From: a virus
Direction: 5' to 3' (one strand)
Length of the DNA: 64,000 nucleotides
Virus record (IMG/VR): IMGVR_UViG_3300010371_000002
Coordinates: 1 to 64,000 of that record
Shown here: positions 44,055 through 57,446 of the stretch, one piece after another
How the letters are laid out: each line of letters opens with the position of its first letter
Numbering within the stretch: the first letter of the stretch is position 1
Notes under the pieces: model-generated
What the model saw: the letters and a program-made list of their open reading frames with translations, nothing else
The model's database searches: none
What the model was told of the DNA's origin: nothing
Program-made: the position numbers and the translations under genes

Positions 44055-44453
44055 TTACAGCCGGGTCAGTTCCGGGTTGATCAGTACGTCCACCAGATTG
44101 CCCGACGTGGCGTTCGTCACCGCCGTCCCGACCACCTGGGCCACGATCGCCCCCGTGGTATTGGGCACGATCGGGACAGCCTGCCCGATGGCGTTCGAGG
44201 CGACTTGCTGGCCTGCCGTGATGGTTGCGCCCGCGATGATCTGGCAGATATCATCGATCTGGACCGCGACGTTGCCGTCCGAGTCCGAGGGTTCGCCGGT
44301 GACACCGGCGAACGGCTGGGCGTTCGCGGTCGAGAGCGCCACGGCTCCCTGGTTCACCGTCGAAACGATGACGATCAGGTTCGCGCCGACGGGCGTGGTG
44401 GGCGCTCCGTCAACCGTGAATGTCCGGCGTCGGCCGGTATGCTGATAGGCCAT
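44055..44453 (-). CDS. Capsid cement/decoration protein (DUF2190-like)
   Basis: AGATITAGQQVASNAIGQAV...VGTAVTNATSGNLVDVLI. Confidence 0.8.
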   Translation of the reverse strand: MAYQHTGRRRTFTVDGAPTTPVGANLIVIVSTVNQGAVALSTANAQPFAGVTGEPSDSDGNVAVQIDDICQIIAGATITAGQQVASNAIGQAVPIVPNTTGAIVAQVVGTAVTNATSGNLVDVLINPELTRL

Positions 44454-47400
44454 TATTTTCCTCCTGCCACCGGCGCGCTGGCGCGGTACGCCGCCGCCTT
44501 ATCGGGATGCTCGCGCGAAACGATTTCGAGCGCCTTACCGAACGTGATGTTGTCCTTCTTGGCGCGGTCCCGCGCGAAGGTGATGATCTCCGCGTCATCG
44601 GCACCGTTTTGGGTGCCGCGCGGAACTCGTGTGGACTGGAAGCCCACGAGCGCCGCGATGGGCTCCCGGTCCTGGTACAGAGGCCGGATGTGGGCGTCGA
44701 AGAACGCCGGTTCCACTTCCCCAAGCTTCTTCGTCAGCGATTCCGCCTCGTGCGAGGTGATGCGGAACTCATCCGCCATGGACTTGATCCAGGCGCTGTT
44801 CTGCGCGAAATGCGCCGCTTTCGCCTGCTCGGCCTGCTTCGTCTGCTCGGCGGAAAAGTCGGTTTTGAGCGCGACATTCTCTTCCCGAAGTTTTGCGAGT
44901 TCGACTTTCAGTGAACTGAACTCGGCCTTGTCGGCCTCACTGAGACCACCACCGGTCGTGGTCGCCCCTGCATCGGCTTCCTTGGTCGCTTCCGCGAAGA
45001 CGGCTACGACCTGCTCTTCCGTCGCGTCGTCCGGCAGCTTCTTGAACTTTGCGGCGATTGTCTGCCACACATTCATTTTTTTCTCCTTGCCGGACCTGTC
45101 GGCCGACATCATCGCGGGCAGGCTCGTCATCGAAGCTTGATGAGCGAGCGGGTGCCCAATGGCGAGTTTGCTCATGTACGCATCGCAGTCCGCGCCCATT
45201 TTGGCCGCGTTATCGTGATGCTTCTGGATCTCCCGCAAGAGTTCGGGAGTGATGAAGTCGGCCCGCCCCTCGACTTCCCGGGGCGTACCGAACATCGATT
45301 TTCCGGGGCAGTGCGCCCCCTGGCTGCACGCGAAGTCGTGTACGACCTGGTGCGGATTGCTGTAGTAGCCGCTGGTGTCGCCCATAAGGACCTTCCCTTG
45401 AGTCGTGGGTGGACCGCCGGACTGCCCGGATTTGAACCCGGCCGCCTCGGCGGCGTTGAAGGCCGCCATGAGCGCGGCCCCGGTGATGCGCGGATGCTCA
45501 ACGAGGGCGAGCCCCGTGAGCTTCTTCGAGGTCCGGTCCCATTCGCACGAGACGGGCTTGTCCTCGGGGAGCTGGCTGTCCAGCCACTTCGGGATCTTGA
45601 CGGTGCCGAAGAGCTTCTTGCCATCGGTCCGGGCGTCGATGACGTCGCCCAGCTTCCCGTCGAGCATCGTGGGGACATGCTCCAGGTCGATCGGCACCGG
45701 CGCGAAGTCCTGAACGGCCTGGTTCATCTCGGCCGTGTTCAGCGAGAACTTCTTATCGGGATAATCACCGACTTCGAACAGGAAGGAGTTCGGATAGTAG
45801 ACGTAATCGCCGTCCTCGAACCGGCTTCCTTGATTTGCAGTGAGGCTGAATGCCGCCATCTTGGCCTTCCTCTTTCCGGTGTAGCCTTTCGGCATCACCG
45901 CCGAATCGTCGTCTCCGTCATCGTCCGGCAGCCACGGCGCGACGATCTCGGGATCATGGAACTGATCCGCCATGCGCTTGTAGATCTTCTCAAGGTCCTC
46001 TTCGGCGGATTTCCGGGACGCCGCCGGGAGATCGGTCTGCTTCAGGCGGGCGGCGGCGTTGAAGGCCCCGTGCGGGATGATCGTGAGCTTCCCGCCCACG
46101 ATATCGGCAATCGGCAGCTTGTAGCTGGTGAAGAGCTTGGGGTCGCCCGCGCAGGCAAGGAACGCCTTGCCGAAGTTGCCTGTCGGCTCCTTGTCGGAGC
46201 CCGTGTGGTCCCGGACGCGCTTTGCCGCCGCCCCGGCGTCCCAGGGATGATCGCGCGGCGCGATGGGAAGCGAAATATCGCCCACCTTGAAGTGAACATG
46301 GGCTGGCTGTGGCATGGCGTCTCCTTTCAAGGGGATCACGAAGCGCCGCCCGCGCGCGTCCGAGAAGGTGATCTCGTCCACGGAATGCTCCGTGCCGATC
46401 AGGGAATCGTTTCCGGCGAACTTCGCGCCCTGGCCAGCCTTCACGTAGGCCACCGTCACATGCGGGCGGTAATCCGGGAACGTGACCGTGGTGTCGCAGC
46501 CGCTTCGGATCTTCTGGTGGAGCGCGTGCAGGTCCGGGCTGTGGACATCAAACTTCACGACATCATCGCGCCCGTCCTTGCCCTCGAACACGCTCGTGGG
46601 ACCGAACCGCAGCGTGACTGGCCCATGATCCTTCACAGCCGCCGCCACGGCATGCGGATCGAACGTATGGAGTCCGTAGCAGACCGTGCAGTGCGGCGTG
46701 TCCTCGCGGCCATCCTCGCCCATGTCAGCATCGGGGATGGATGCCGCAAACCCCGTCACGAGATCCGCGAGAGCGGGCGGAAGGTCGATCTGCGTGGACG
46801 CGAAGGTGTGCCGGAAGTCGCTCGCCCCGAGCCGTGCGGCCATCGCTCCACATTTCGGGCAGACATTGTAACGCCCTCGAACGTTGTCTTCTGTTTCAAA
46901 TTCGTGTCGGCAGTTCGTGCAGGCGAACGAGTACCGATGGGGTTTCTCCTCGCCCGTCGGCTTGTCGATGTGAAGCGACCCCAGATCCGTGAAAGATGCT
47001 TTTTCAGAATCATCGGGGGCAACTTCCAGGAAGCACTGGCAGCGAAAGCCGTGGCACGCGAGATCGAAGCTCTGCGGGTAGAGTCCGGTGGCCGCGAAGT
47101 CCTCGGCCGGCATCGGGCCAAGAGACGCCATCTCCAGGCAGTCGCGGCAGGATTCCTTCGTCGCCCCGATCCGCCAGATGATGGACTGCCCACTCTCCAC
47201 CGCGCCCGCGACCAATCCCGCCCAGTACTGCGACAGAATCGCGTTGCAATACAGCGTCACACGCCGCCGAACCGTATCATCCGAAAGTGGAGAGGGTTGC
47301 GACTGAGAAGTTTGATCTGATCCCTGCTCCGCAGCCGAATTAGCGTCCGCATTCTCGCGCGAGATATGAGCGGCATTGGCGAATAAGCGTAGTGCGTCAG

Positions 47401-47992
47401 CCTGAGTGTCTACAAATGGCTTTGTTGCGTCTTCTGGCGATGAAGCAGATCCCACGGGTGCTGCGGCGGTAAATCCTTCCTGGTAGGCTTCCTGGGCGTT
47501 CTTTTCGATACCGTCGATGGCTTCGGTGATCTCCGAACTCTCGGCGGATGTCACGGCCCCGTAGAGCAACAGCCAGAGCAGAATCAACCCATGGTGCAGG
47601 TTCGCGCTCATCCAGTGCGGCCGCCATGTCCACCCGTCAGGCGCGGAGGAATCGGCGCTGAACTGCCCCGGATGATCCGCTTCGAGCATCTGGCTCCAGA
47701 GTCTGGCGAACCAGGCGCGGCCAGCTTGCCCACCCCAGAGCAGGGCCGACACGTAGCCGGGGCTGTCATGGGGCAGATCGAGGAACCGGCGATTGCGGAG
47801 CCAGAACCGATGCGCCTTGCGTGCCTTGTCAGGGCTGACCGTTCCTCCTGTGGCGATTCGGTGCGCCCATGCGATGGTTCCGGCTTCCAGGCCGTCGCCG
47901 CCATGCCCCGCATCCACCATCCCGGCCCCCGTTCGGCATGCGTCCTGCACGGCTTTCGGTGGCTTGAAGTCGATGTGGACGTAATTGGACAT
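44453..47992 (-). CDS. Head polyprotein: N-terminal domain, MuF-like domain, Zn ribbon, 2H phosphoesterase (Acb1-like), helical domain, Mu gpI-like prohead protease, scaffold
   Basis: SALLWGG; W....ESCRDC...LACHGFRCQC; CTNC..CPKC; HCTV and HVTV; YKLPIAD; PIDLEH...PVSCEW...LTGLALVEHP; acidic coiled-coil C-terminus. Confidence 0.85.
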   Translation of the reverse strand: MSNYVHIDFKPPKAVQDACRTGAGMVDAGHGGDGLEAGTIAWAHRIATGGTVSPDKARKAHRFWLRNRRFLDLPHDSPGYVSALLWGGQAGRAWFARLWSQMLEADHPGQFSADSSAPDGWTWRPHWMSANLHHGLILLWLLLYGAVTSAESSEITEAIDGIEKNAQEAYQEGFTAAAPVGSASSPEDATKPFVDTQADALRLFANAAHISRENADANSAAEQGSDQTSQSQPSPLSDDTVRRRVTLYCNAILSQYWAGLVAGAVESGQSIIWRIGATKESCRDCLEMASLGPMPAEDFAATGLYPQSFDLACHGFRCQCFLEVAPDDSEKASFTDLGSLHIDKPTGEEKPHRYSFACTNCRHEFETEDNVRGRYNVCPKCGAMAARLGASDFRHTFASTQIDLPPALADLVTGFAASIPDADMGEDGREDTPHCTVCYGLHTFDPHAVAAAVKDHGPVTLRFGPTSVFEGKDGRDDVVKFDVHSPDLHALHQKIRSGCDTTVTFPDYRPHVTVAYVKAGQGAKFAGNDSLIGTEHSVDEITFSDARGRRFVIPLKGDAMPQPAHVHFKVGDISLPIAPRDHPWDAGAAAKRVRDHTGSDKEPTGNFGKAFLACAGDPKLFTSYKLPIADIVGGKLTIIPHGAFNAAARLKQTDLPAASRKSAEEDLEKIYKRMADQFHDPEIVAPWLPDDDGDDDSAVMPKGYTGKRKAKMAAFSLTANQGSRFEDGDYVYYPNSFLFEVGDYPDKKFSLNTAEMNQAVQDFAPVPIDLEHVPTMLDGKLGDVIDARTDGKKLFGTVKIPKWLDSQLPEDKPVSCEWDRTSKKLTGLALVEHPRITGAALMAAFNAAEAAGFKSGQSGGPPTTQGKVLMGDTSGYYSNPHQVVHDFACSQGAHCPGKSMFGTPREVEGRADFITPELLREIQKHHDNAAKMGADCDAYMSKLAIGHPLAHQASMTSLPAMMSADRSGKEKKMNVWQTIAAKFKKLPDDATEEQVVAVFAEATKEADAGATTTGGGLSEADKAEFSSLKVELAKLREENVALKTDFSAEQTKQAEQAKAAHFAQNSAWIKSMADEFRITSHEAESLTKKLGEVEPAFFDAHIRPLYQDREPIAALVGFQSTRVPRGTQNGADDAEIITFARDRAKKDNITFGKALEIVSREHPDKAAAYRASAPVAGGK

Positions 47993-47997
47993 GGCAA

Positions 47998-48021
47998 CAA
48001 AAAAGCGCCCTCGGAGGCGCT
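47998..48021 (-). terminator. Terminator-like hairpin directly upstream of the polyprotein start
   Basis: AGCGCC-tccgag-GGCGCT followed by a T-run on the minus strand. Confidence 0.55.
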
Positions 48022-48038: not shown

Positions 48039-48353
48039 ATGCAGTATTGCGAAATGGGGCGAAATTATATGAATGATCGCAACGAAATCACCGGCTTGAA
48101 CACATTGTCACAGCCGTGGAATCAAGTCGGCAGCCGCGCACTCTCCACTGAAGACCTCACTGCCGTACGGGCCAAGATGATCCGTGAGTGGGGAACACCG
48201 AAGCCCGAACCTCATCTCTACGTCCCGGCAAACTGGCAAGAAAGCGAGTACTGGCGGGCCGCTGTTGGGTTCTGGACAAACGACCGTAGCCTTATCAGTG
48301 ATCGATACCTGGAAGCCATTAATCACGTGGTCCACGAGATGCTCATGGGGTGA
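48039..48353 (+). CDS. Hypothetical moron protein (start uncertain)
   Basis: TACAAT at 48031-48036; opposite strand to the late operon. Confidence 0.45.
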   Translation: MQYCEMGRNYMNDRNEITGLNTLSQPWNQVGSRALSTEDLTAVRAKMIREWGTPKPEPHLYVPANWQESEYWRAAVGFWTNDRSLISDRYLEAINHVVHEMLMG

Positions 48354-48364
48354 TACAATCAAGC

Positions 48365-48667
48365 ATGGAAAAGCAAATCACATGGTCCGATTTCGCGGGG
48401 GCAAAATGCGATCCCGTCGGTGACATGCTCTCAATGGCGGAATCGCGCGAGGACGTCGAATATCTACAGCGCATGCTTCTGCGTGAAGACGCGCCCGAGG
48501 AAACCGTCAATCGGTTTGAACAGGCAAAGTCTCAGCTTCCGCAGTTTGGTCCAAGTCCAATCCGTCCGATGATTCATCCGGCGCTGAATGCTCTTGAACT
48601 TGAAGAGGCTGTGCGGGAGTGGATTCGGTCGGGATTGCCGGATCGTCCACGCTCTCAGGCAGACTGA
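48365..48667 (+). CDS. Hypothetical moron protein, probably leaderless
   Basis: TGATACAAT ends 5 nt before ATG 48365. Confidence 0.5.
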   Translation: MEKQITWSDFAGAKCDPVGDMLSMAESREDVEYLQRMLLREDAPEETVNRFEQAKSQLPQFGPSPIRPMIHPALNALELEEAVREWIRSGLPDRPRSQAD

Positions 48668-49336: not shown

Positions 49337-50224
49337 TCAATAGGGATACTGGGCGGCGACGTCTTGCATTCGGAGACGGCGGAGCGCGGGCGGCAGGTAG
49401 CCATGGAATCCGCAGACGATGGGCTTTCGGTCATGCGGATCGCAATGCCCGCAGTAGTTCCAGGGATACCGGAGCGTCACAAGCCCCGCTTGATAATCAG
49501 GCTCATCCAGTAATAGCCGCATCATGGCGTCCTGGTCATCGGGAGACCCTTCGTGTTCCATGGCCCGCACGTGCTCGAAATAGCGCAGGCTGTCCGGTGT
49601 GACGCGCACATAGAAGCAGCCAGTCTGCCAGTGGAAGACATCGCCTGCCCAAGGGCAGAACCCGATAATCCGCATCCCGAGCCACGCATGCGTCGGAAGT
49701 GCCGTTCTCAGATCCACCGAGAGATCCGCCACGAATGAGTCGGCGTCGATCCAGAAGATATGCGTGTACCGACCGCTTCGCATGGCCTCCAGAATCAAGT
49801 CGATTCGGAACCATTTCGGGGAATGGTTCTCGCCGGGATCAGCCGCGAGGTATTCGTACCCCTGCCGGTCACAGTACTCGCGGTGCCGCGCTTCATGGTC
49901 CCGCACCATCCCCGCGAACTCACCGGACAGACCGCATGTCAAAAAGAGCGGTTTGGCATCCTGCGCGAAGCTTTCTCTCAGGGTGCCGCGCTCTGCCTGC
50001 TCATCCGGCAAACGATTTTGAGGCTTGGAATCGCCAATTCTTGCAACGGTAAAAGACGTGATTCTCGTGTGCGGGTTATATACTTCGTCCAGAATGCGAG
50101 TTGGGCATCCGGCTCGCTCGTCAAGAATACGTGCGATCAAAGATGGTTCCTTAACGCCCAGCACCAAGATCTCTGCATCGCTCACTTCAATAAGTGTGAT
50201 GGTGGAGTCATATTTATCGGTCAT
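49337..50224 (-). CDS. GT-A glycosyltransferase, GT34 (GMA12/MNN10)-like
   Basis: YCDRQGYEY...SPKWFRI.LI...IFWIDAD (DxD), TGCFYVR, DDQDAM, WN; ATGA overlap. Confidence 0.75.
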   Translation of the reverse strand: MTDKYDSTITLIEVSDAEILVLGVKEPSLIARILDERAGCPTRILDEVYNPHTRITSFTVARIGDSKPQNRLPDEQAERGTLRESFAQDAKPLFLTCGLSGEFAGMVRDHEARHREYCDRQGYEYLAADPGENHSPKWFRIDLILEAMRSGRYTHIFWIDADSFVADLSVDLRTALPTHAWLGMRIIGFCPWAGDVFHWQTGCFYVRVTPDSLRYFEHVRAMEHEGSPDDQDAMMRLLLDEPDYQAGLVTLRYPWNYCGHCDPHDRKPIVCGFHGYLPPALRRLRMQDVAAQYPY

Positions 50225-51150
50225 GCCACGATCCTTGTCACGGACTGAATGAAGGCGCTCAAATCCTGCTCGTACATGACGAGTTCGATATTGGGAACCT
50301 CCAACCAGCGCCGGAAGTAGCTCACCGGCGAGGAAAGCGGCTTGTTGCCGAGCACGCACGCCGGGAGGCTCTGGACCGCGCAGTAATGCGACAGGCCGCT
50401 CGCCGTCGTGATGACGCCAGAACTTTGTTCCGAGAGAGCCATCACCGCCGTCATGCTAGGGGCGCTGTTCACCAGATCAATAATTCTCGGATGTCTGCCT
50501 TTTGGTTCCCAGCCCTGCCCGACAAGCACATACGTCCACGGCGTGTAATTTACGAGGAACGACAGCGCTTGCTCCCAGTGCGGCCAGTGATCCTCGATGG
50601 GCGAGCTGTTGAGCGAAAGCGGATTGACCACAAAGAAGCGATTATCAATTTGCGATGAAACCGATGTGGCCCAGTTCCACGCCGATTGAGGAAGGCGCGC
50701 TCCATTCCACCGGTGGACCGCACGCTGACGCATCCAGGGCTGCGAGGCTCCCATGGTGGTATTCAGGACATGCCCCGTGACCCCTGCTCTTGCCCGCAGT
50801 TCCCTCGTGGGTTCCATGTCCTGATCGAGCGGCGTGTCGGCGATATACCGGCACACGCGCCAGTAATCCGCCCCGTCGCGAGGCTGCACATGAACGACTT
50901 CCCGAACCCCCGATTGAAGTCTCAGGAAACAAGGGATCATGGGATCTCGCGCCCAGCAGAGGATGCCGCCTTCGCCGATCATGGACCGGAACGCGCCGAA
51001 ATCGATCAGGCAATCGCCCCAAGCCCCTACGCACGTACCCCAGCGCAAAGGAGGGGCCGCCGGTCGCCATCGGTGCGGCTTGTCACAGGGCAGCGCGATA
51101 TTCCCGCCACGCCACGGGTCCGAAAAAGTGGTGTCCTCCATCAAAGACAC
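50221..51150 (-). CDS. GT-B glycosyltransferase, GT9 (heptosyltransferase)-like
   Basis: GAWGDCL, NPLS...WPHW, VLVG, IIDLV, VITTASGLSH.C....P.CVL. Confidence 0.7.
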   Translation of the reverse strand: MSLMEDTTFSDPWRGGNIALPCDKPHRWRPAAPPLRWGTCVGAWGDCLIDFGAFRSMIGEGGILCWARDPMIPCFLRLQSGVREVVHVQPRDGADYWRVCRYIADTPLDQDMEPTRELRARAGVTGHVLNTTMGASQPWMRQRAVHRWNGARLPQSAWNWATSVSSQIDNRFFVVNPLSLNSSPIEDHWPHWEQALSFLVNYTPWTYVLVGQGWEPKGRHPRIIDLVNSAPSMTAVMALSEQSSGVITTASGLSHYCAVQSLPACVLGNKPLSSPVSYFRRWLEVPNIELVMYEQDLSAFIQSVTRIVA

Positions 51151-52268
51151 CTCTCAATCGGGACCGCGTACAGAACCGTCTCCCACCCCATATCCTCATA
51201 GCACCGGGCATAGAATCGGTAGTTCTCGCAGACACTTGCCAGAAAGGCTGGAATGGTCCACAGGTCGGATGGGCGGTGATAGAGGCAGCAGGCGATGACG
51301 GGGCGGTCACGGCGGATTGTTTCGACTCCACCCCGAAGCGCTTCGAGCTCGGCACCTTCGATGTCAAGCTTCCAGAGCGATGTGAGGTGGTATCGGCAAA
51401 GCTCATCAATCATCGCCGCCGGAACCTCAATACCCTGGTCGTCAATTCGTGCCGATACTCCCGATCCATTGATCCGCACGGACTTGACTGCCGGGTCACC
51501 GACGAGAGCGCACAAACGCCGTCGGCATTCCGGCAACAATTTCGACTGGATGGCGTTCAGCTTCTCGAAGTTTCCGGGGTTGGCCTCGATGGTGAAGACG
51601 CTAGCCTGGTACATGTCGTACCGCTTGCGGAACTCCAGCATGGTATCGCCGTCATAGGCTCCGCAGTCCAGAAAGCTCTCATCCTCGCGCGGTCGGTACA
51701 GCGTGAAGTCGAAGTAGATATCCTCTGGCAGCGAATACGATGGGCGCGGCTTGTACGTCGCCGTCCGGTCGCTGTAGGTTTTGAAGAAACCGTAGGCGTC
51801 CCGCACGACCTGCCGCGAAGCTTCATCGCTCCACGCATCAAGCCAGGTCTCGGGATGCGGCGGGACGTCGGCCCATGCGGGCAGCTTCAGCGCGTTGAAG
51901 TGCTGCCAGAGCGTCCACCAATGCACGATGCGGTCAGGAGAGACGCCAAGGTCGATAAGTTGCCGCCGCACATCTTCCGCGCCGAGGTGAACGAGGATGA
52001 CGTAGGTGGTACAAGCGGGAACCCAGCCATCATGATGAGGCGCATGGATGACGTGCCCATTGTAACCAACGGCTAAGTCGTGTTTCGCACCATCGTTATC
52101 CATGAAGGCGACGATAGGATATCCTGGGATACCGTCCGGGAAATGTTCCAATAGCTGGCGACAGAGATTGCCGCAGCCTACGATTGCAAGGAAGCCGGAC
52201 GGCGGGATAAGGCACTCCCATTCGGTTTGAGGTGTGGTGGCTTCACAAGGCGCTGTTACTGCTTGCAT
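51141..52268 (-). CDS. FkbM-family SAM-dependent methyltransferase with N-terminal Rossmann-like domain
   Basis: FLDCGAYDGDT, IEANP.NF, KLDIEGAELEAL.G..TI....P......YH. Confidence 0.9.
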   Translation of the reverse strand: MQAVTAPCEATTPQTEWECLIPPSGFLAIVGCGNLCRQLLEHFPDGIPGYPIVAFMDNDGAKHDLAVGYNGHVIHAPHHDGWVPACTTYVILVHLGAEDVRRQLIDLGVSPDRIVHWWTLWQHFNALKLPAWADVPPHPETWLDAWSDEASRQVVRDAYGFFKTYSDRTATYKPRPSYSLPEDIYFDFTLYRPREDESFLDCGAYDGDTMLEFRKRYDMYQASVFTIEANPGNFEKLNAIQSKLLPECRRRLCALVGDPAVKSVRINGSGVSARIDDQGIEVPAAMIDELCRYHLTSLWKLDIEGAELEALRGGVETIRRDRPVIACCLYHRPSDLWTIPAFLASVCENYRFYARCYEDMGWETVLYAVPIERCL

Positions 52269-54182: not shown

Positions 54183-55685
54183 CTATTTGGAATCGTTGTT
54201 ACCGGGTGCGCCGTCGGTCGTTTGGGTTGGGTTGTCGCCGGTGGCGTCGCCGTCACCGGATGCAGGCTTGCTCGTGACGTTCTGCGGCTTCTGACCGGCG
54301 ATCTGCTGGGTCTTCTTCACGAGGTCCGCATACTGCTGCGCCTGGTCGAGCATCTCCTGCTCTTCCGGGCTGATGGGCGGCAGGTCCATCTCATCGCGGA
54401 TCAGCTTCGCCGTCGGGGCGACGTTCCCGATCTGGACCAGTTCCCCGAACGCTTGGGCGAGCGCGAGCAGGTTCTTGCGGGCCTTCCCGAGCGACACCAT
54501 GGGGCAGAGATCAAGGGCGTCGTCACCATAGTTGTAGCGGATGAGTCGCCGCACGAGCTGATTGCTCAGCACACCCTCGACCATCTTGCGTGTGAAGTCG
54601 AAGCCGAACTGCTGCGTATTCTCGTGGACCTTCCCGAGGGCGTTGGTGTTCGTCCCGCCGGTCGTGCCCGTTGTGAGAGTGTTGCCAAGCACGGCGGTTG
54701 CGATCTGCTGCACGTGCCAGTCAGCCGCCATCTTGAACCCCTCCAGCGCCTTTGCATCGAGTGAGACGACCTCGTATTCACAGTTTTCCGGGAGAAGTAA
54801 TGAAGATCCGCTGCGCACCGAGTCGATGGCGGCTGACGCGGCAGCTAGCGCGACGGTATCGCCGAGAGGGTATTTGACCACCAGGAATGGGCTTCCAAAG
54901 CGTTCACAGCCGATGGTCCAGAACTTCAGGATGCCGTCGAGTATCCACCAGTGCTTGTAGCACGAGCGGCCGTCCCCATCCCCGTAGGGCAATCCGCGCT
55001 TCGGGTTGTGGGTGTAGATCAGCACCTTCTCGACGGGCAGCGGCTTCTGGTAGCCTTCGAGGGGCGAATAGGCATCCACGTTGATCGGGGCCATGGTCCG
55101 CAGATCCAGATCCCAGCCGATCTCCTGCGCGGGCTTGGAGGCGATGTACTCCAGCCCCGTCTTGCCGCTGTACTTGCCGCCCTTGAAGCGCTTCCAGGTC
55201 ATCTCAGAGACGTGGCAGCCGTCCCAGCATCCCCGCAGCAGCTCGAACAGCACCGCGAGGAAGTCCTGCGGGAAGTCCGTCTGGTCGTTGCGGATATTCT
55301 TCAGCACATATTTCGTGAACTGCGCGAGTTCGTCCGCTTTACCGAAATCGGGGTCTTCAGGTTCCCGGATGGCGCTCACGATGTCCCAGCCGTCGGAGAG
55401 GATCGCGTAGCGCTTGATGTCGAACGGGGCGCGGCACGCCGCCATCGTCAACATCTCATCGAACTTATCGAAACCAACCTGGTTGATGAGCTGGTCCAGG
55501 TTGAACTGCGCGAACCGGAACGAGGCGGCGTAGATGCTGTCATAGCCCGCCATCAGCGATTTGAAGCGGTCCCGCGTCTCCAGGACGACGGGCATCTGGT
55601 CCCGCACGTAAGCGGATGCCGTCAAGGCGTCGATCGGCTTACTGACTGGCTGGAGTGACCTAGCGACGGGTTTTGACTTGATCAT
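54183..55685 (-). CDS. Portal protein (DUF935, Mu gp29-like)
   Basis: P.EKVLIYTH....PYG.G..RSCY..W..W..GCERFG.PF...Y..G, IATAVLGNTLTT, ALGKVH. Confidence 0.9.
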   Translation of the reverse strand: MIKSKPVARSLQPVSKPIDALTASAYVRDQMPVVLETRDRFKSLMAGYDSIYAASFRFAQFNLDQLINQVGFDKFDEMLTMAACRAPFDIKRYAILSDGWDIVSAIREPEDPDFGKADELAQFTKYVLKNIRNDQTDFPQDFLAVLFELLRGCWDGCHVSEMTWKRFKGGKYSGKTGLEYIASKPAQEIGWDLDLRTMAPINVDAYSPLEGYQKPLPVEKVLIYTHNPKRGLPYGDGDGRSCYKHWWILDGILKFWTIGCERFGSPFLVVKYPLGDTVALAAASAAIDSVRSGSSLLLPENCEYEVVSLDAKALEGFKMAADWHVQQIATAVLGNTLTTGTTGGTNTNALGKVHENTQQFGFDFTRKMVEGVLSNQLVRRLIRYNYGDDALDLCPMVSLGKARKNLLALAQAFGELVQIGNVAPTAKLIRDEMDLPPISPEEQEMLDQAQQYADLVKKTQQIAGQKPQNVTSKPASGDGDATGDNPTQTTDGAPGNNDSK

Positions 55686-55688
55686 ACG

Positions 55689-57446
55689 TCACCAGACCTT
55701 CGAGGTTCCGTAAGGAGAGCGGGGAAGCTGCGCGGTAACACGCTGAGCCTCTTGCAATGCTTCGCGGGTGTTGCCGCCCTCCTTGACAAGCAGCCGGCGC
55801 AGAGCCTGTGTGGCCGTGTCCACCTGATCGTCATACGCGCCAGCCGGGAATGCGGACGATTCACCGATGAAGCCATGCACCCATGGGAAGATGTCAGGGT
55901 GCGGCAGGTACGTATTGCCTGACTCAATGACGGGCGTCACGGCATGAGCCCTGGCAATCTTGTCCCCGTCGGGTTCAACGGGCGTCAGCCCTGGGATGCG
56001 GCTTTTCAGCGACGCGATAATGGCCGGACCATTCGCCTTGTCCTCAACGAGCTTGGATGTTGCCTGCGGCCATTTTGCGGACAGTGCAAGGAGTGCGGCT
56101 TCAGTTGCCGTAAAATCCAGCTTGTCATGGACCTGATCAAGCAGAAAGGCGTCAGCCGCGAGCCGCGCCCAGACCTGCCCACACACATAGTCGCTTGTGA
56201 CAGCGCCCTTGAACGCCATATCCCATGACTGAATGGTCTCATCAAACCAGGGCGGCAGTTCGATGACCGGGCAATAGACGATATCGCCGTTGTCGAGGCG
56301 CAGGGGGTACGGTTCCGTGCGGAAACCCTTGGGCACCCAGAAACGCCACCAGCGCGCCTTGAGGATCGTTCCTTCGGCCGGCGCCGGACGCTGCTGCATC
56401 TGCCCCGCATACCCCGCCGTCCCAAGCCGCAGCCGCTCCGATTCCAACACCGACTTCGGAAACCGATCCGGCATAAGCAATTCGCCCGGAGTGGTACGTG
56501 GATCTCGGAACCCTAACGGGGATCTTCCTTCTTGGCAACTGGGGCATTTACAGCTCGTGGAGATCTCGTACTCCATGGGAAGAACCATGTGGTAGAGGTC
56601 GGGGAGCTTGGGCAGAACGTGGCCGGTCCAGTCGCGCTCATGCAAGCGCTGCATGATGCCGATGCGCAGGGACGACATCATATCGTTGACGCGGTTGCCA
56701 GCCTTCAGATCCCACCAGTCGTTCACGGACTGCCGCAGGGCGTCCGAGAGCACTTCCTTAGCGTCGTTGGGGTCATCGACAAAGAAGGCATCAGCCCGAT
56801 CTCCGGTGAGTTTTCCCCCACACGTCGCCGCGAGCCGGAAACCCCCTGCGGTGTTCTTGTAGAAACCCTTCGCATTCTGGTCGGCAGCCATCGACCACTT
56901 GGGTTCGAACCAGGATTGATACCAACTCGACTCGATCAACTCCCGACAATACATCGAGTCCCGAAGAACGAGGTTTTCCGAACCGGACGTGAAGATGGCT
57001 CGCCAGGAAGGCCAATGCAACCACATCCACGCCGTTGTGTAGACGCTGACGATGCGTGACTTCGCCGTACCGGGCGGGATATTGACCACGAAACTCTTGA
57101 ACCGCTGCTCGGGTTCGGGCAAGCCCTTCATGCGGGCACGCTGCACGGCCATCCAGTCTTCGAGCATCGCCTGCACGTGGTCGCAGATCGCGTCCATGTG
57201 CCAGTTCCACACCAGCGGCGTGGTCGGCTCCAGGACATGCCACCCTTCACGGAAGAACGTAGCGAGGGAGGCACGGGCAGCAATGGCAAGCTTTCGCTCT
57301 TCTGCCGTCAGGGAAGCGCGTTGCAGTTTTGCGGCGAGCTTCTTTTTGTCTTCCTCGCTGACTTTGGCGAAACGAAATGAGGGGGTATCAATCCGTGGAA
57401 GCCGGATCGGCGTCGATAGAATCATGGCTCTTGCCTGCCGCCGCAT
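55689..57446 (-). CDS. terL: Terminase large subunit
   Basis: Walker A NIPPGTAKS, Walker B FFVDDP, IMQRLHERD, nuclease SWD, VEDKANG, DDQVD. Confidence 0.95.
   Translation of the reverse strand: MRRQARAMILSTPIRLPRIDTPSFRFAKVSEEDKKKLAAKLQRASLTAEERKLAIAARASLATFFREGWHVLEPTTPLVWNWHMDAICDHVQAMLEDWMAVQRARMKGLPEPEQRFKSFVVNIPPGTAKSRIVSVYTTAWMWLHWPSWRAIFTSGSENLVLRDSMYCRELIESSWYQSWFEPKWSMAADQNAKGFYKNTAGGFRLAATCGGKLTGDRADAFFVDDPNDAKEVLSDALRQSVNDWWDLKAGNRVNDMMSSLRIGIMQRLHERDWTGHVLPKLPDLYHMVLPMEYEISTSCKCPSCQEGRSPLGFRDPRTTPGELLMPDRFPKSVLESERLRLGTAGYAGQMQQRPAPAEGTILKARWWRFWVPKGFRTEPYPLRLDNGDIVYCPVIELPPWFDETIQSWDMAFKGAVTSDYVCGQVWARLAADAFLLDQVHDKLDFTATEAALLALSAKWPQATSKLVEDKANGPAIIASLKSRIPGLTPVEPDGDKIARAHAVTPVIESGNTYLPHPDIFPWVHGFIGESSAFPAGAYDDQVDTATQALRRLLVKEGGNTREALQEAQRVTAQLPRSPYGTSKVW

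Follow-up and report, generated by a model that had tools for sequence, protein, structure and literature searches.

A predicted head-assembly polyprotein of an uncultured soil phage carries a 2H phosphoesterase domain, a candidate capsid cargo

We analysed a 64,000-nucleotide stretch of viral DNA, here called the window, comprising positions 1 to 64,000 of the IMG/VR record IMGVR_UViG_3300010371_000002. According to that record, the source is an uncultured soil phage of 93,960 bp with direct terminal repeats and a completeness rated at 100%. On the minus strand, positions 44453-47992 of the window hold a single uninterrupted open reading frame (ORF) of 1179 aa plus stop, which encodes the protein P0001; the ORF is the sole match within the 93,960-bp genome. 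Judged from its sequence, P0001 would be an internal head-assembly polyprotein whose 2H phosphoesterase, once freed, hydrolyses immune nucleotides, a reading to which we give roughly even credence. The C-terminal ~470 residues would be an ordinary prohead serine protease and scaffold of the Mu gpI/T4 gp21/assemblin kind (410-570 aa in most relatives), and a cargo consisting of a Cys-rich domain, a Zn ribbon and the 2H phosphodiesterase would have been inserted between this protease and an N-terminal domain (N-domain). An initial annotation of the DNA had already named these parts, and all of them sit where it put them. Those that carry the argument are the following.

44453..47992, minus strand: whole ORF of P0001, the predicted head-assembly polyprotein, 1179 aa plus stop, continuous across independent contigs
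46313..46810, minus strand: 2H phosphoesterase domain, residues 395-560, scoring 43.8 bits with PF13563 and 35.3 bits with PF23474 (Acb1)
45428..45847, minus strand: predicted prohead serine protease domain, residues ~716-855, with candidate catalytic H772 and S815, from fold and conservation
45173..45367, minus strand: two HD-x3-6-GA-x-C repeats, residues 879-895 and 920-936, conserved across the family
44456..45076, minus strand: putative scaffold, residues 973-1179, a coiled coil and a conserved C-terminal domain; the C-terminal part matches phrog_976 (E 0.008), and the region aligns to standalone protease-scaffold proteins

That the 1179 aa are read in one frame was borne out by the ORF, which holds no stop, and by further contigs. 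Logan contigs from three soil or rhizosphere samples (X1-X3) span the ORF with 0-3 substitutions and 0 indels. In a ~95%-identical variant from a soil study of 2024 (X4) every indel keeps the P0001 frame; the changes are 18 additional nucleotides, three 1-nt deletions inside 11 nt, and 94 nt in place of a 97-nt stretch, and 25 of the 38 listed substitutions fall in the third codon position. X1-X3 may be the samples behind the record's assembly, therefore independent occurrence was counted from X4 alone. The intact frame in these contigs, together with the third-position bias of X4, indicates that the fusion is real and that the ORF is under purifying selection, and the possibility of an assembly artefact, which the initial annotation had raised, was not borne out.

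It is accordingly highly improbable, in our estimate, that the fusion is functionless, whether as an assembly or frameshift artefact or as a decaying, inactive 2H passenger. Such a view draws on the rarity of the exact architecture, which has no full-length relative among the best 150 of 7103 matches from an exhaustive search of 1.84 billion representatives; a word-indexed search gave three relatives, all partial. It is opposed by the presence of the ORF in three assemblies, by the divergent variant, which keeps both frame and third-position bias, by an intact catalytic tetrad in a high-confidence model, and by a 97.7-kb contig (L005) that keeps 2H, protease and scaffold in one gene. This 781-aa gene is syntenic, being accompanied by a 132-aa gene and a 341-aa capsid gene, yet is just 35-40% identical, which points to a 2H-protease-scaffold fusion that is old and conserved.

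The 2H phosphoesterase domain

Both scores of the 2H domain lie above the Pfam gathering cut-off, which is 27 bits for PF13563 and for PF23474. Both HxT motifs are present, H434-C-T436 within PHCTVCYG and H511-V-T513 within DYRPHVTVAY. When the domain is aligned with 32 relatives, every sequence keeps H434, T436 and H511 and at least 90% have T513, and these active-site motifs indicate that the domain is catalytically intact. An AlphaFold (AF2) model of the domain has a mean pLDDT (predicted local distance difference test score) of 93.4. Its best structural match, 1iuh, was aligned over 155 residues (Z 15.4, root-mean-square deviation (rmsd) 3.1), and essentially all of the 68 chains matched at Z ≥ 8 are 2H proteins, Foldseek and VIA-align agreeing on the 2H fold. 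This confirms the 2H phosphoesterase that the initial annotation had recognised from the same two motifs.

The further description of the domain as Acb1-like was upheld in part. In its favour are the PF23474 score and a search of all PDB sequences with a profile of the clade, in which Acb1 proteins were the only matches at E ≤ 0.01 (9q2g, 2.8e-4, and 9q2y, 5.7e-4, from Burkholderia phage BCSR5; 7t26, 0.01). The fold, on the other hand, matched LigT and Usb1 as well, with structural Z scores of 14.4 for E. coli LigT, 14.2 for Usb1 and 12.7 for Acb1 (7t26, 135 of 137 residues aligned). The fold cannot separate Acb1 from LigT, and it is fair to call the 2H domain Acb1-related at the sequence level because the clade profile returns only Acb1 proteins. 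When the whole of P0001 was compared with the PDB by phmmer, Talin matches on the Cys-rich linker region were judged spurious, and Acb1 reached just E 0.078.

P0001 shares with the Acb1 enzymes of T4 (gp57B), Erwinia phage FBB1 (7T26/7T27) and BCSR5 (9Q2G/9Q2Y) the 2H fold, the HxT/HxT tetrad and a PF23474 score above the cut-off. The two differ in that the identity to the P0001 domain is 18-22% and that Acb1 is a free enzyme of ~150 aa, whereas the 2H of P0001 is a domain of a predicted late structural polyprotein. Acb1 and viral 2H phosphodiesterases (PDEs) break down the signals of antiphage signalling systems that are based on cyclic oligonucleotides (CBASS) and other signals (Doherty et al. 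2025, bioRxiv 10.1101/2025.08.21.671373, among cited work). The same study reports that viral 2H PDEs sharing one active site differ sharply in substrate, and that 2H PDE lids are predicted poorly and vary even inside a group; in FBB1 Acb1 a terminal lid is accompanied by an aromatic clamp of Y12, W74, F107 and W147 (PMC9117128). In the collection of papers searched, none links Acb1 to MuF or polyvalent proteins, and none on the BCSR5 Acb1 enzyme came up under the phage's name.

An enzyme directed at RNA would also fit a 2H fold. It could be a 2',3'-cyclic phosphodiesterase or a Usb1-like RNase that heals tRNA or rRNA ends produced by anticodon nucleases of the host or by its other RNase defences, or that attacks host RNA, and it might equally be loaded into heads. 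The LigT-like fold scores keep this reading alive, the top structural Z scores being those to ThpR/LigT-type enzymes and Usb1 (14-15.4), and the best Pfam match is to the general 2'-5' RNA ligase family (PF13563). Iyer et al. (2017, PMC5512222; Iyer, Burroughs, Anand, de Souza, Aravind), who described 2H domains fused to MuF or portal proteins, proposed for them either the degradation of defence nucleotides or an RNase role. The same authors, however, never found the 2H clade linked to ligases, and family scans, which can miss divergent forms, detected no RNA ligase or RtcB in the 94-kb genome, which weakens an RNA-repair role. With only Acb1 enzymes reaching E ≤ 0.01 among solved structures in the profile search, we consider an RNA substrate unlikely.

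The protease-scaffold carrier and recurrent fusions

In 22 aligned relatives of the protease region S815 is invariant and H772 occurs in at least 90%, at a spacing of 43 residues, making the two residues the candidate catalytic pair. A model of residues 722-855 has a pLDDT of 85-96. With this model the top 20 Foldseek matches were nearly all herpesvirus proteases (assemblins, E 1e-3). An unbiased search of 48,161 chains placed T4 gp21 (5jbl) first, at Z 8.3 and rmsd 3.4 over 110 aligned residues, followed by the varicella-zoster virus protease (Z 7.7) and that of human cytomegalovirus; these Z scores are moderate. The model identifies residues ~716-855 as a predicted prohead protease with the T4 gp21/herpes assemblin fold. 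The Mu gpI-like protease and scaffold of the initial annotation are upheld by this fold and by the conserved His and Ser, although P0001 itself has no direct Pfam match to PF10123 or PF04586. The homologue P0005 passes Mu-like_Pro PF10123 (28.9 bits against a cut-off of 25.2) over the part that follows the protease.

Standalone phage proteins of 410-574 aa (P0005, P0006, P0008, P0010 and others) can be aligned to residues 573-1173. The polyprotein gene lies upstream of the major capsid gene and ends in a scaffold region, as is the case for prohead proteases. Family scans of the complete genome, which can miss divergent forms, detected no other prohead protease (S78, ClpP or Mu-like), so that the one in P0001 is the sole candidate maturation protease detected in this phage. 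The pair of HD...GA.C repeats that follows the protease may serve as a metal site or as a cleavage module.

A single frame that holds both protease and scaffold, and in which the scaffold alone probably has an internal start of its own, is shared with Mu gpI/gpZ, lambda C/Nu3 and P2 gpO, from which P0001 differs by ~710 additional N-terminal cargo residues and by the lack of a Pfam protease match of its own. With seven segments in one chain and its gene inside the head module, P0001 falls among polyvalent proteins as these were delimited by Iyer et al. (2017).

The 2H domain recurs on many other carriers. In most of the matches listed it is 42-52% identical to domains in polyvalent proteins of 2000-6800 aa and in portal fusions. 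Fusion partners of the clade include portals from three Pfam families (P0002, P0016, P0069, P0148), MuF (P0003) and the protease family of P0001, the last in three different orders. Besides P0001 itself, a single gene in L005 and in L022 encodes N-domain, Zn ribbon, 2H, protease and scaffold, and in P0007 the order is protease, 2H, scaffold, with the 2H domain inserted exactly between the two HD...GA.C repeats. In P0009 the 2H domain precedes a different protease-like region, a domain of the type found at P0001 residues 570-690, and a tail. These independent fusions to so many head-internal carriers are the strongest evidence here that the 2H enzyme would be capsid cargo.

A relative of the protease is encoded at 42 IMG/VR loci, of which 2 carry a 2H domain and 4 another long N-terminal extension. 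The latter type is seen in the protease-scaffold ORFs of L006-L009 (928-1082 aa), whose N-terminal extensions of 500-650 aa have no Pfam match and no 2H domain. These extensions may be other cargo at the same position.

Cultured actinophages hold comparable genes. BayC gp11 (L002:1616-5209) combines MuF, a weak 2H domain in which both HxT motifs are present, and a domain of the 570-690 type. ValentiniPuff gp7 (L047:3291-4463), an XkdF-type protease gene, has 2H and Peptidase_S78_2, both over their cut-offs, and the 950-aa Tiamoceli gp18 (L048:2220-5072) has a 2H domain inside. The 2H domains of ValentiniPuff gp7 and BayC gp11 are more distant from the P0001 clade. The annotation of all three proteins names nothing but a capsid or head maturation protease, with MuF-like added in BayC, and their 2H domains are unannotated.

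These genes (BayC/TP1604 gp11, those of cluster EG, ValentiniPuff gp7 and Tiamoceli gp18) resemble that of P0001 in being one large gene between portal and capsid that joins a head-internal module to a protease. In BayC gp11, a Streptomyces phage protein of 1197 aa named 'capsid maturation protease and MuF-like fusion protein', there is in addition a region homologous to P0001 residues 571-670. They differ from P0001 in using other protease families and other 2H subfamilies (24-40% identity or none), and in having MuF domains that Pfam recognises, which it does not in P0001.

The claim of the initial annotation that the complete architecture was undescribed proved too strong as it stood. Fusions of 2H to MuF or portal, and the role proposed for them, are in Iyer et al. 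(2017, PMC5512222); 13 of 75 phage 2H PDEs have extra domains, 'proteases' included, which are left undiscussed (Doherty et al. 2025); MuF-protease fusions are known in actinophages of Microbacterium cluster EG (PMC7302621); and the three actinophage proteins above already hold 2H domains. P0001 resembles the polyvalent and 2H fusions of Iyer et al. in its 2H clade, in its virion-gene context and in the proposed role. The part that stands is the carrier, since fusions to a scaffold or prohead protease are absent from the text of PMC5512222, and its processing would be by the capsid maturation protease and not by a Zn-metallopeptidase. What is new is the carrier, a protease-scaffold polyprotein predicted to process itself, together with the fact that at least three protease families show the fusion, and the stoichiometry that nested starts would probably set.

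Nested starts, loading and site of action

The first ATG of the ORF (47992) has no Shine-Dalgarno (SD) sequence. Pairing with the anti-SD sequence was scored for 54 in-frame start codons, and, with the G-run before M25 left aside, the best ATGs were M560, M973, M712 and M870, all at domain boundaries. The candidate control elements are listed here.

48004..48021, minus strand: terminator-like hairpin, with 5 GC pairs among its 7 bp, plus a T-run, recognised from the sequence and ending 11 nt ahead of the ORF's ATG
46313..46315, minus strand: M560, candidate internal start just past the 2H domain, with AAAGGAG, the top SD pairing of the 54
45857..45859, minus strand: M712, candidate start of a 468-aa protease-scaffold protein, with GAGGAAGG upstream and an SD score among the best of the ORF

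Both M712 and M973 fall where standalone homologues begin or where a Met is conserved. The position of M712 is the start of P0006, P0010, P0013 and P0014, and the standalone P0005 and P0008 start ~12 residues downstream of M560. M973 has AAGGAG 6 nt ahead of its ATG at 45076, and the best of the SD-preceded ATGs past the protease leaves a product of 140-220 aa at 27 of 41 related loci. From these internal ATGs and product lengths a nested scaffold gene is likely, as in Mu I/Z or lambda C/Nu3, and the scaffold part is probably also made alone from M973. The hairpin before the ORF could throttle the full-length form. With internal starts at M560, M712 and M973 set against a first ATG that lacks an SD sequence, protease-scaffold and scaffold proteins would be made in excess, and the full-length form with its cargo may make up only a small share.

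We propose that the cargo would be co-assembled into the procapsid because it is covalently joined to the scaffold, and that the protease would then cut the chain at linkers. The freed 2H enzyme, of ~20 kDa, would hydrolyse host immune messengers, which could be cyclic di- or trinucleotides or 2'-5'-linked signals. It might act in the next infection, once ejected together with the DNA, which we favour although it is unproven, or late in the producing cell. The loading step follows the logic of T4, in which Alt and IPI-III enter the prohead via the scaffold core, are freed by gp21 and are then injected. The T4 effectors use a short, non-covalent capsid-targeting peptide, whereas the P0001 cargo is fused covalently to protease and scaffold.

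Several observations weigh against a capsid-borne nuclease of immune nucleotides. Scaffold fragments normally exit the capsid, and the 2H piece could be expelled with them rather than packaged. Acb1 is usually early and free, and the P0001 domain is fused to a late structural gene. PF13563 outscores PF23474 across the same 2H residues, and the fold lies at least as near to the LigT/ThpR cyclic phosphodiesterases (Z 14-15) and Usb1 as to Acb1 (Z 12.7). The SD-like strings may mirror nothing but linkers rich in Lys, Gly and Glu. Finally, membership of the Cys-rich domain in the MuF family is favoured solely by an Atlas lead and a motif pattern, and a MuF link to portal binding or ejection is unconfirmed.

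The departure of scaffold pieces from proheads, together with a gene that is late and structural, would also suit an enzyme that works only in the producing cell, tethered to its carrier, and is expelled with scaffold fragments after cleavage. The fusion would then serve co-expression, or would put the enzyme beside assembly proteins that some CBASS systems sense. In phage T1, mutations in the prohead protease, scaffold and capsid are reported to escape type I CBASS (review, PMC13728456), making conceivable the second idea of the initial annotation, that signalling triggered by head assembly itself would be neutralised. Expulsion with the scaffold, however, cannot account for the portal fusions, and the same clade is found in these and in giant polyvalent proteins encoded near virion genes, carriers that stay in the virion (Iyer et al. 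2017, PMC5512222). Action confined to the producing cell therefore seems improbable to us.

More speculative still, and in our view doubtful, is a version in which the 2H domain is attached to exactly those proteins (prohead protease, scaffold, capsid) that the cGAS-like sensors of CBASS detect, so that the signal would be destroyed in cis, where and when it is made. Such tethering, if true, would explain why the 2H clade is repeatedly fused to unrelated portal, MuF, protease and scaffold families, and joining a messenger nuclease to whatever triggers immunity would amount to a general strategy of counter-defence.

If, as we favour, the 2H enzyme both breaks down immune nucleotides and is carried in the capsid, the counter-defence would arrive ready-made, and the lag of early expression that limits free Acb1-type enzymes would be removed. 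The comparative pattern yields testable candidates in the cultured actinophages BayC, ValentiniPuff and Tiamoceli. An unannotated phosphodiesterase is hidden in many genes that bear the label 'capsid maturation protease', and these 2H domains bear on surveys of anti-defence genes and on the choice of phages for use on hosts that have CBASS, type III CRISPR or Panoptes systems.

Remaining domains and neighbouring genes

The other segments of P0001 are as follows.

47663..47992, minus strand: N-domain, residues 1-110, ~45% identical to residues 1-110 of P0057 and 33% to residues 1-95 of the L005 protein; phrog_2859
47003..47281, minus strand: Cys-rich domain, residues ~238-330 (C282, C285, C313, C318, C320), MuF-like by motif only
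46949..46999, minus strand: linker motif LGSLHIDKPxGEE, residues ~332-348, common to P0001, the L005 protein and P0011, the last without a 2H domain
46832..46933, minus strand: Zn ribbon CxxC...CxxC, residues 354-387, matching Zn_ribbon_8 (E 5e-5) and TIGR02605 (E 9e-5), both under the cut-offs
45923..46285, minus strand: ~120-aa domain, residues 570-690, with a low-confidence model and a weak DUF6582 lead (Atlas score 0.79)

The N-domain is homologous to the N-termini of P0057, of the L005 protein and of head proteins of Nodularia and Vibrio phages. In P0057 and the L005 protein it is the N-terminus of protease/scaffold proteins, and in Vibrio phage 1.214.O it stands at the N-terminus of a 659-aa protein whose gene is located between the MuF and capsid genes. 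A poorly conserved region that separates the N-domain from the Cys-rich domain contains a hydrophobic stretch of 14 residues, GLILLWLLLYGAVT, at residues ~135-148 (47549-47590, minus strand).

The initial annotation had described the Cys-rich domain as MuF-like, which the family searches did not support. MuF (PF04233/TIGR01641) gave no match to P0001 at Pfam E ≤ 1 or NCBIfam E ≤ 10, a PF04233 scan of the whole genome gave none at E ≤ 10, and hhalign against MuF, with very small (three-sequence) alignments, returned a probability of 0.3. Residues 190-345 searched alone matched only themselves. The CxxC...CxC pattern resembles that of ValentiniPuff gp6, which is annotated as MuF-like, and the Atlas lead is a cluster scoring 0.92, of whose members 18% have PF04233. 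The domain aligns with residues 154-252 of P0038 (E 1e-4), a protein that runs on into the same protease and scaffold, and the Cys-rich domain of P0038 in turn matches P0108 immediately ahead of the 2H domain of the latter.

The LGSLHIDKPxGEE linker is a candidate maturation cleavage site. The Zn ribbon is kept in the L005 protein. For the helical domain of the initial annotation, a ~120-aa domain was found at residues 570-690, but its model is of low confidence and its one lead, to DUF6582, is weak. Homologues of this region form the N-termini of P0005 and P0008 and occur at residues 417-540 of P0009 and 796-898 of BayC gp11; it is a module often placed ahead of phage proteases or scaffolds.

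The minus-strand head module runs in the order terminase, portal, a block that looks non-structural, polyprotein, 132-aa gene and major capsid gene.

55689..57446, minus strand: terminase large subunit, 585 aa; phrog_38, E 1e-85
54183..55685, minus strand: portal protein, 500 aa; phrog_113, E 2.7e-53
44055..44453, minus strand: 132-aa head gene, its start overlapping the stop codon of the polyprotein gene; phrog_673, with a syntenic 132-aa gene in L005
43017..44045, minus strand: major capsid protein, 342 aa; phrog_1005, E 1.7e-38

Between the portal and the head genes, positions 49337-52268 (minus strand) encode an FkbM-type methyltransferase (PF05050, E 9e-13) and a weak GT34-like glycosyltransferase, which could modify virion glycans. 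Directly upstream of the polyprotein gene, the minus-strand head operon is broken up by two plus-strand ORFs of 104 and 105 aa (48039-48667), which have no family match and lie in a stretch of lower GC.

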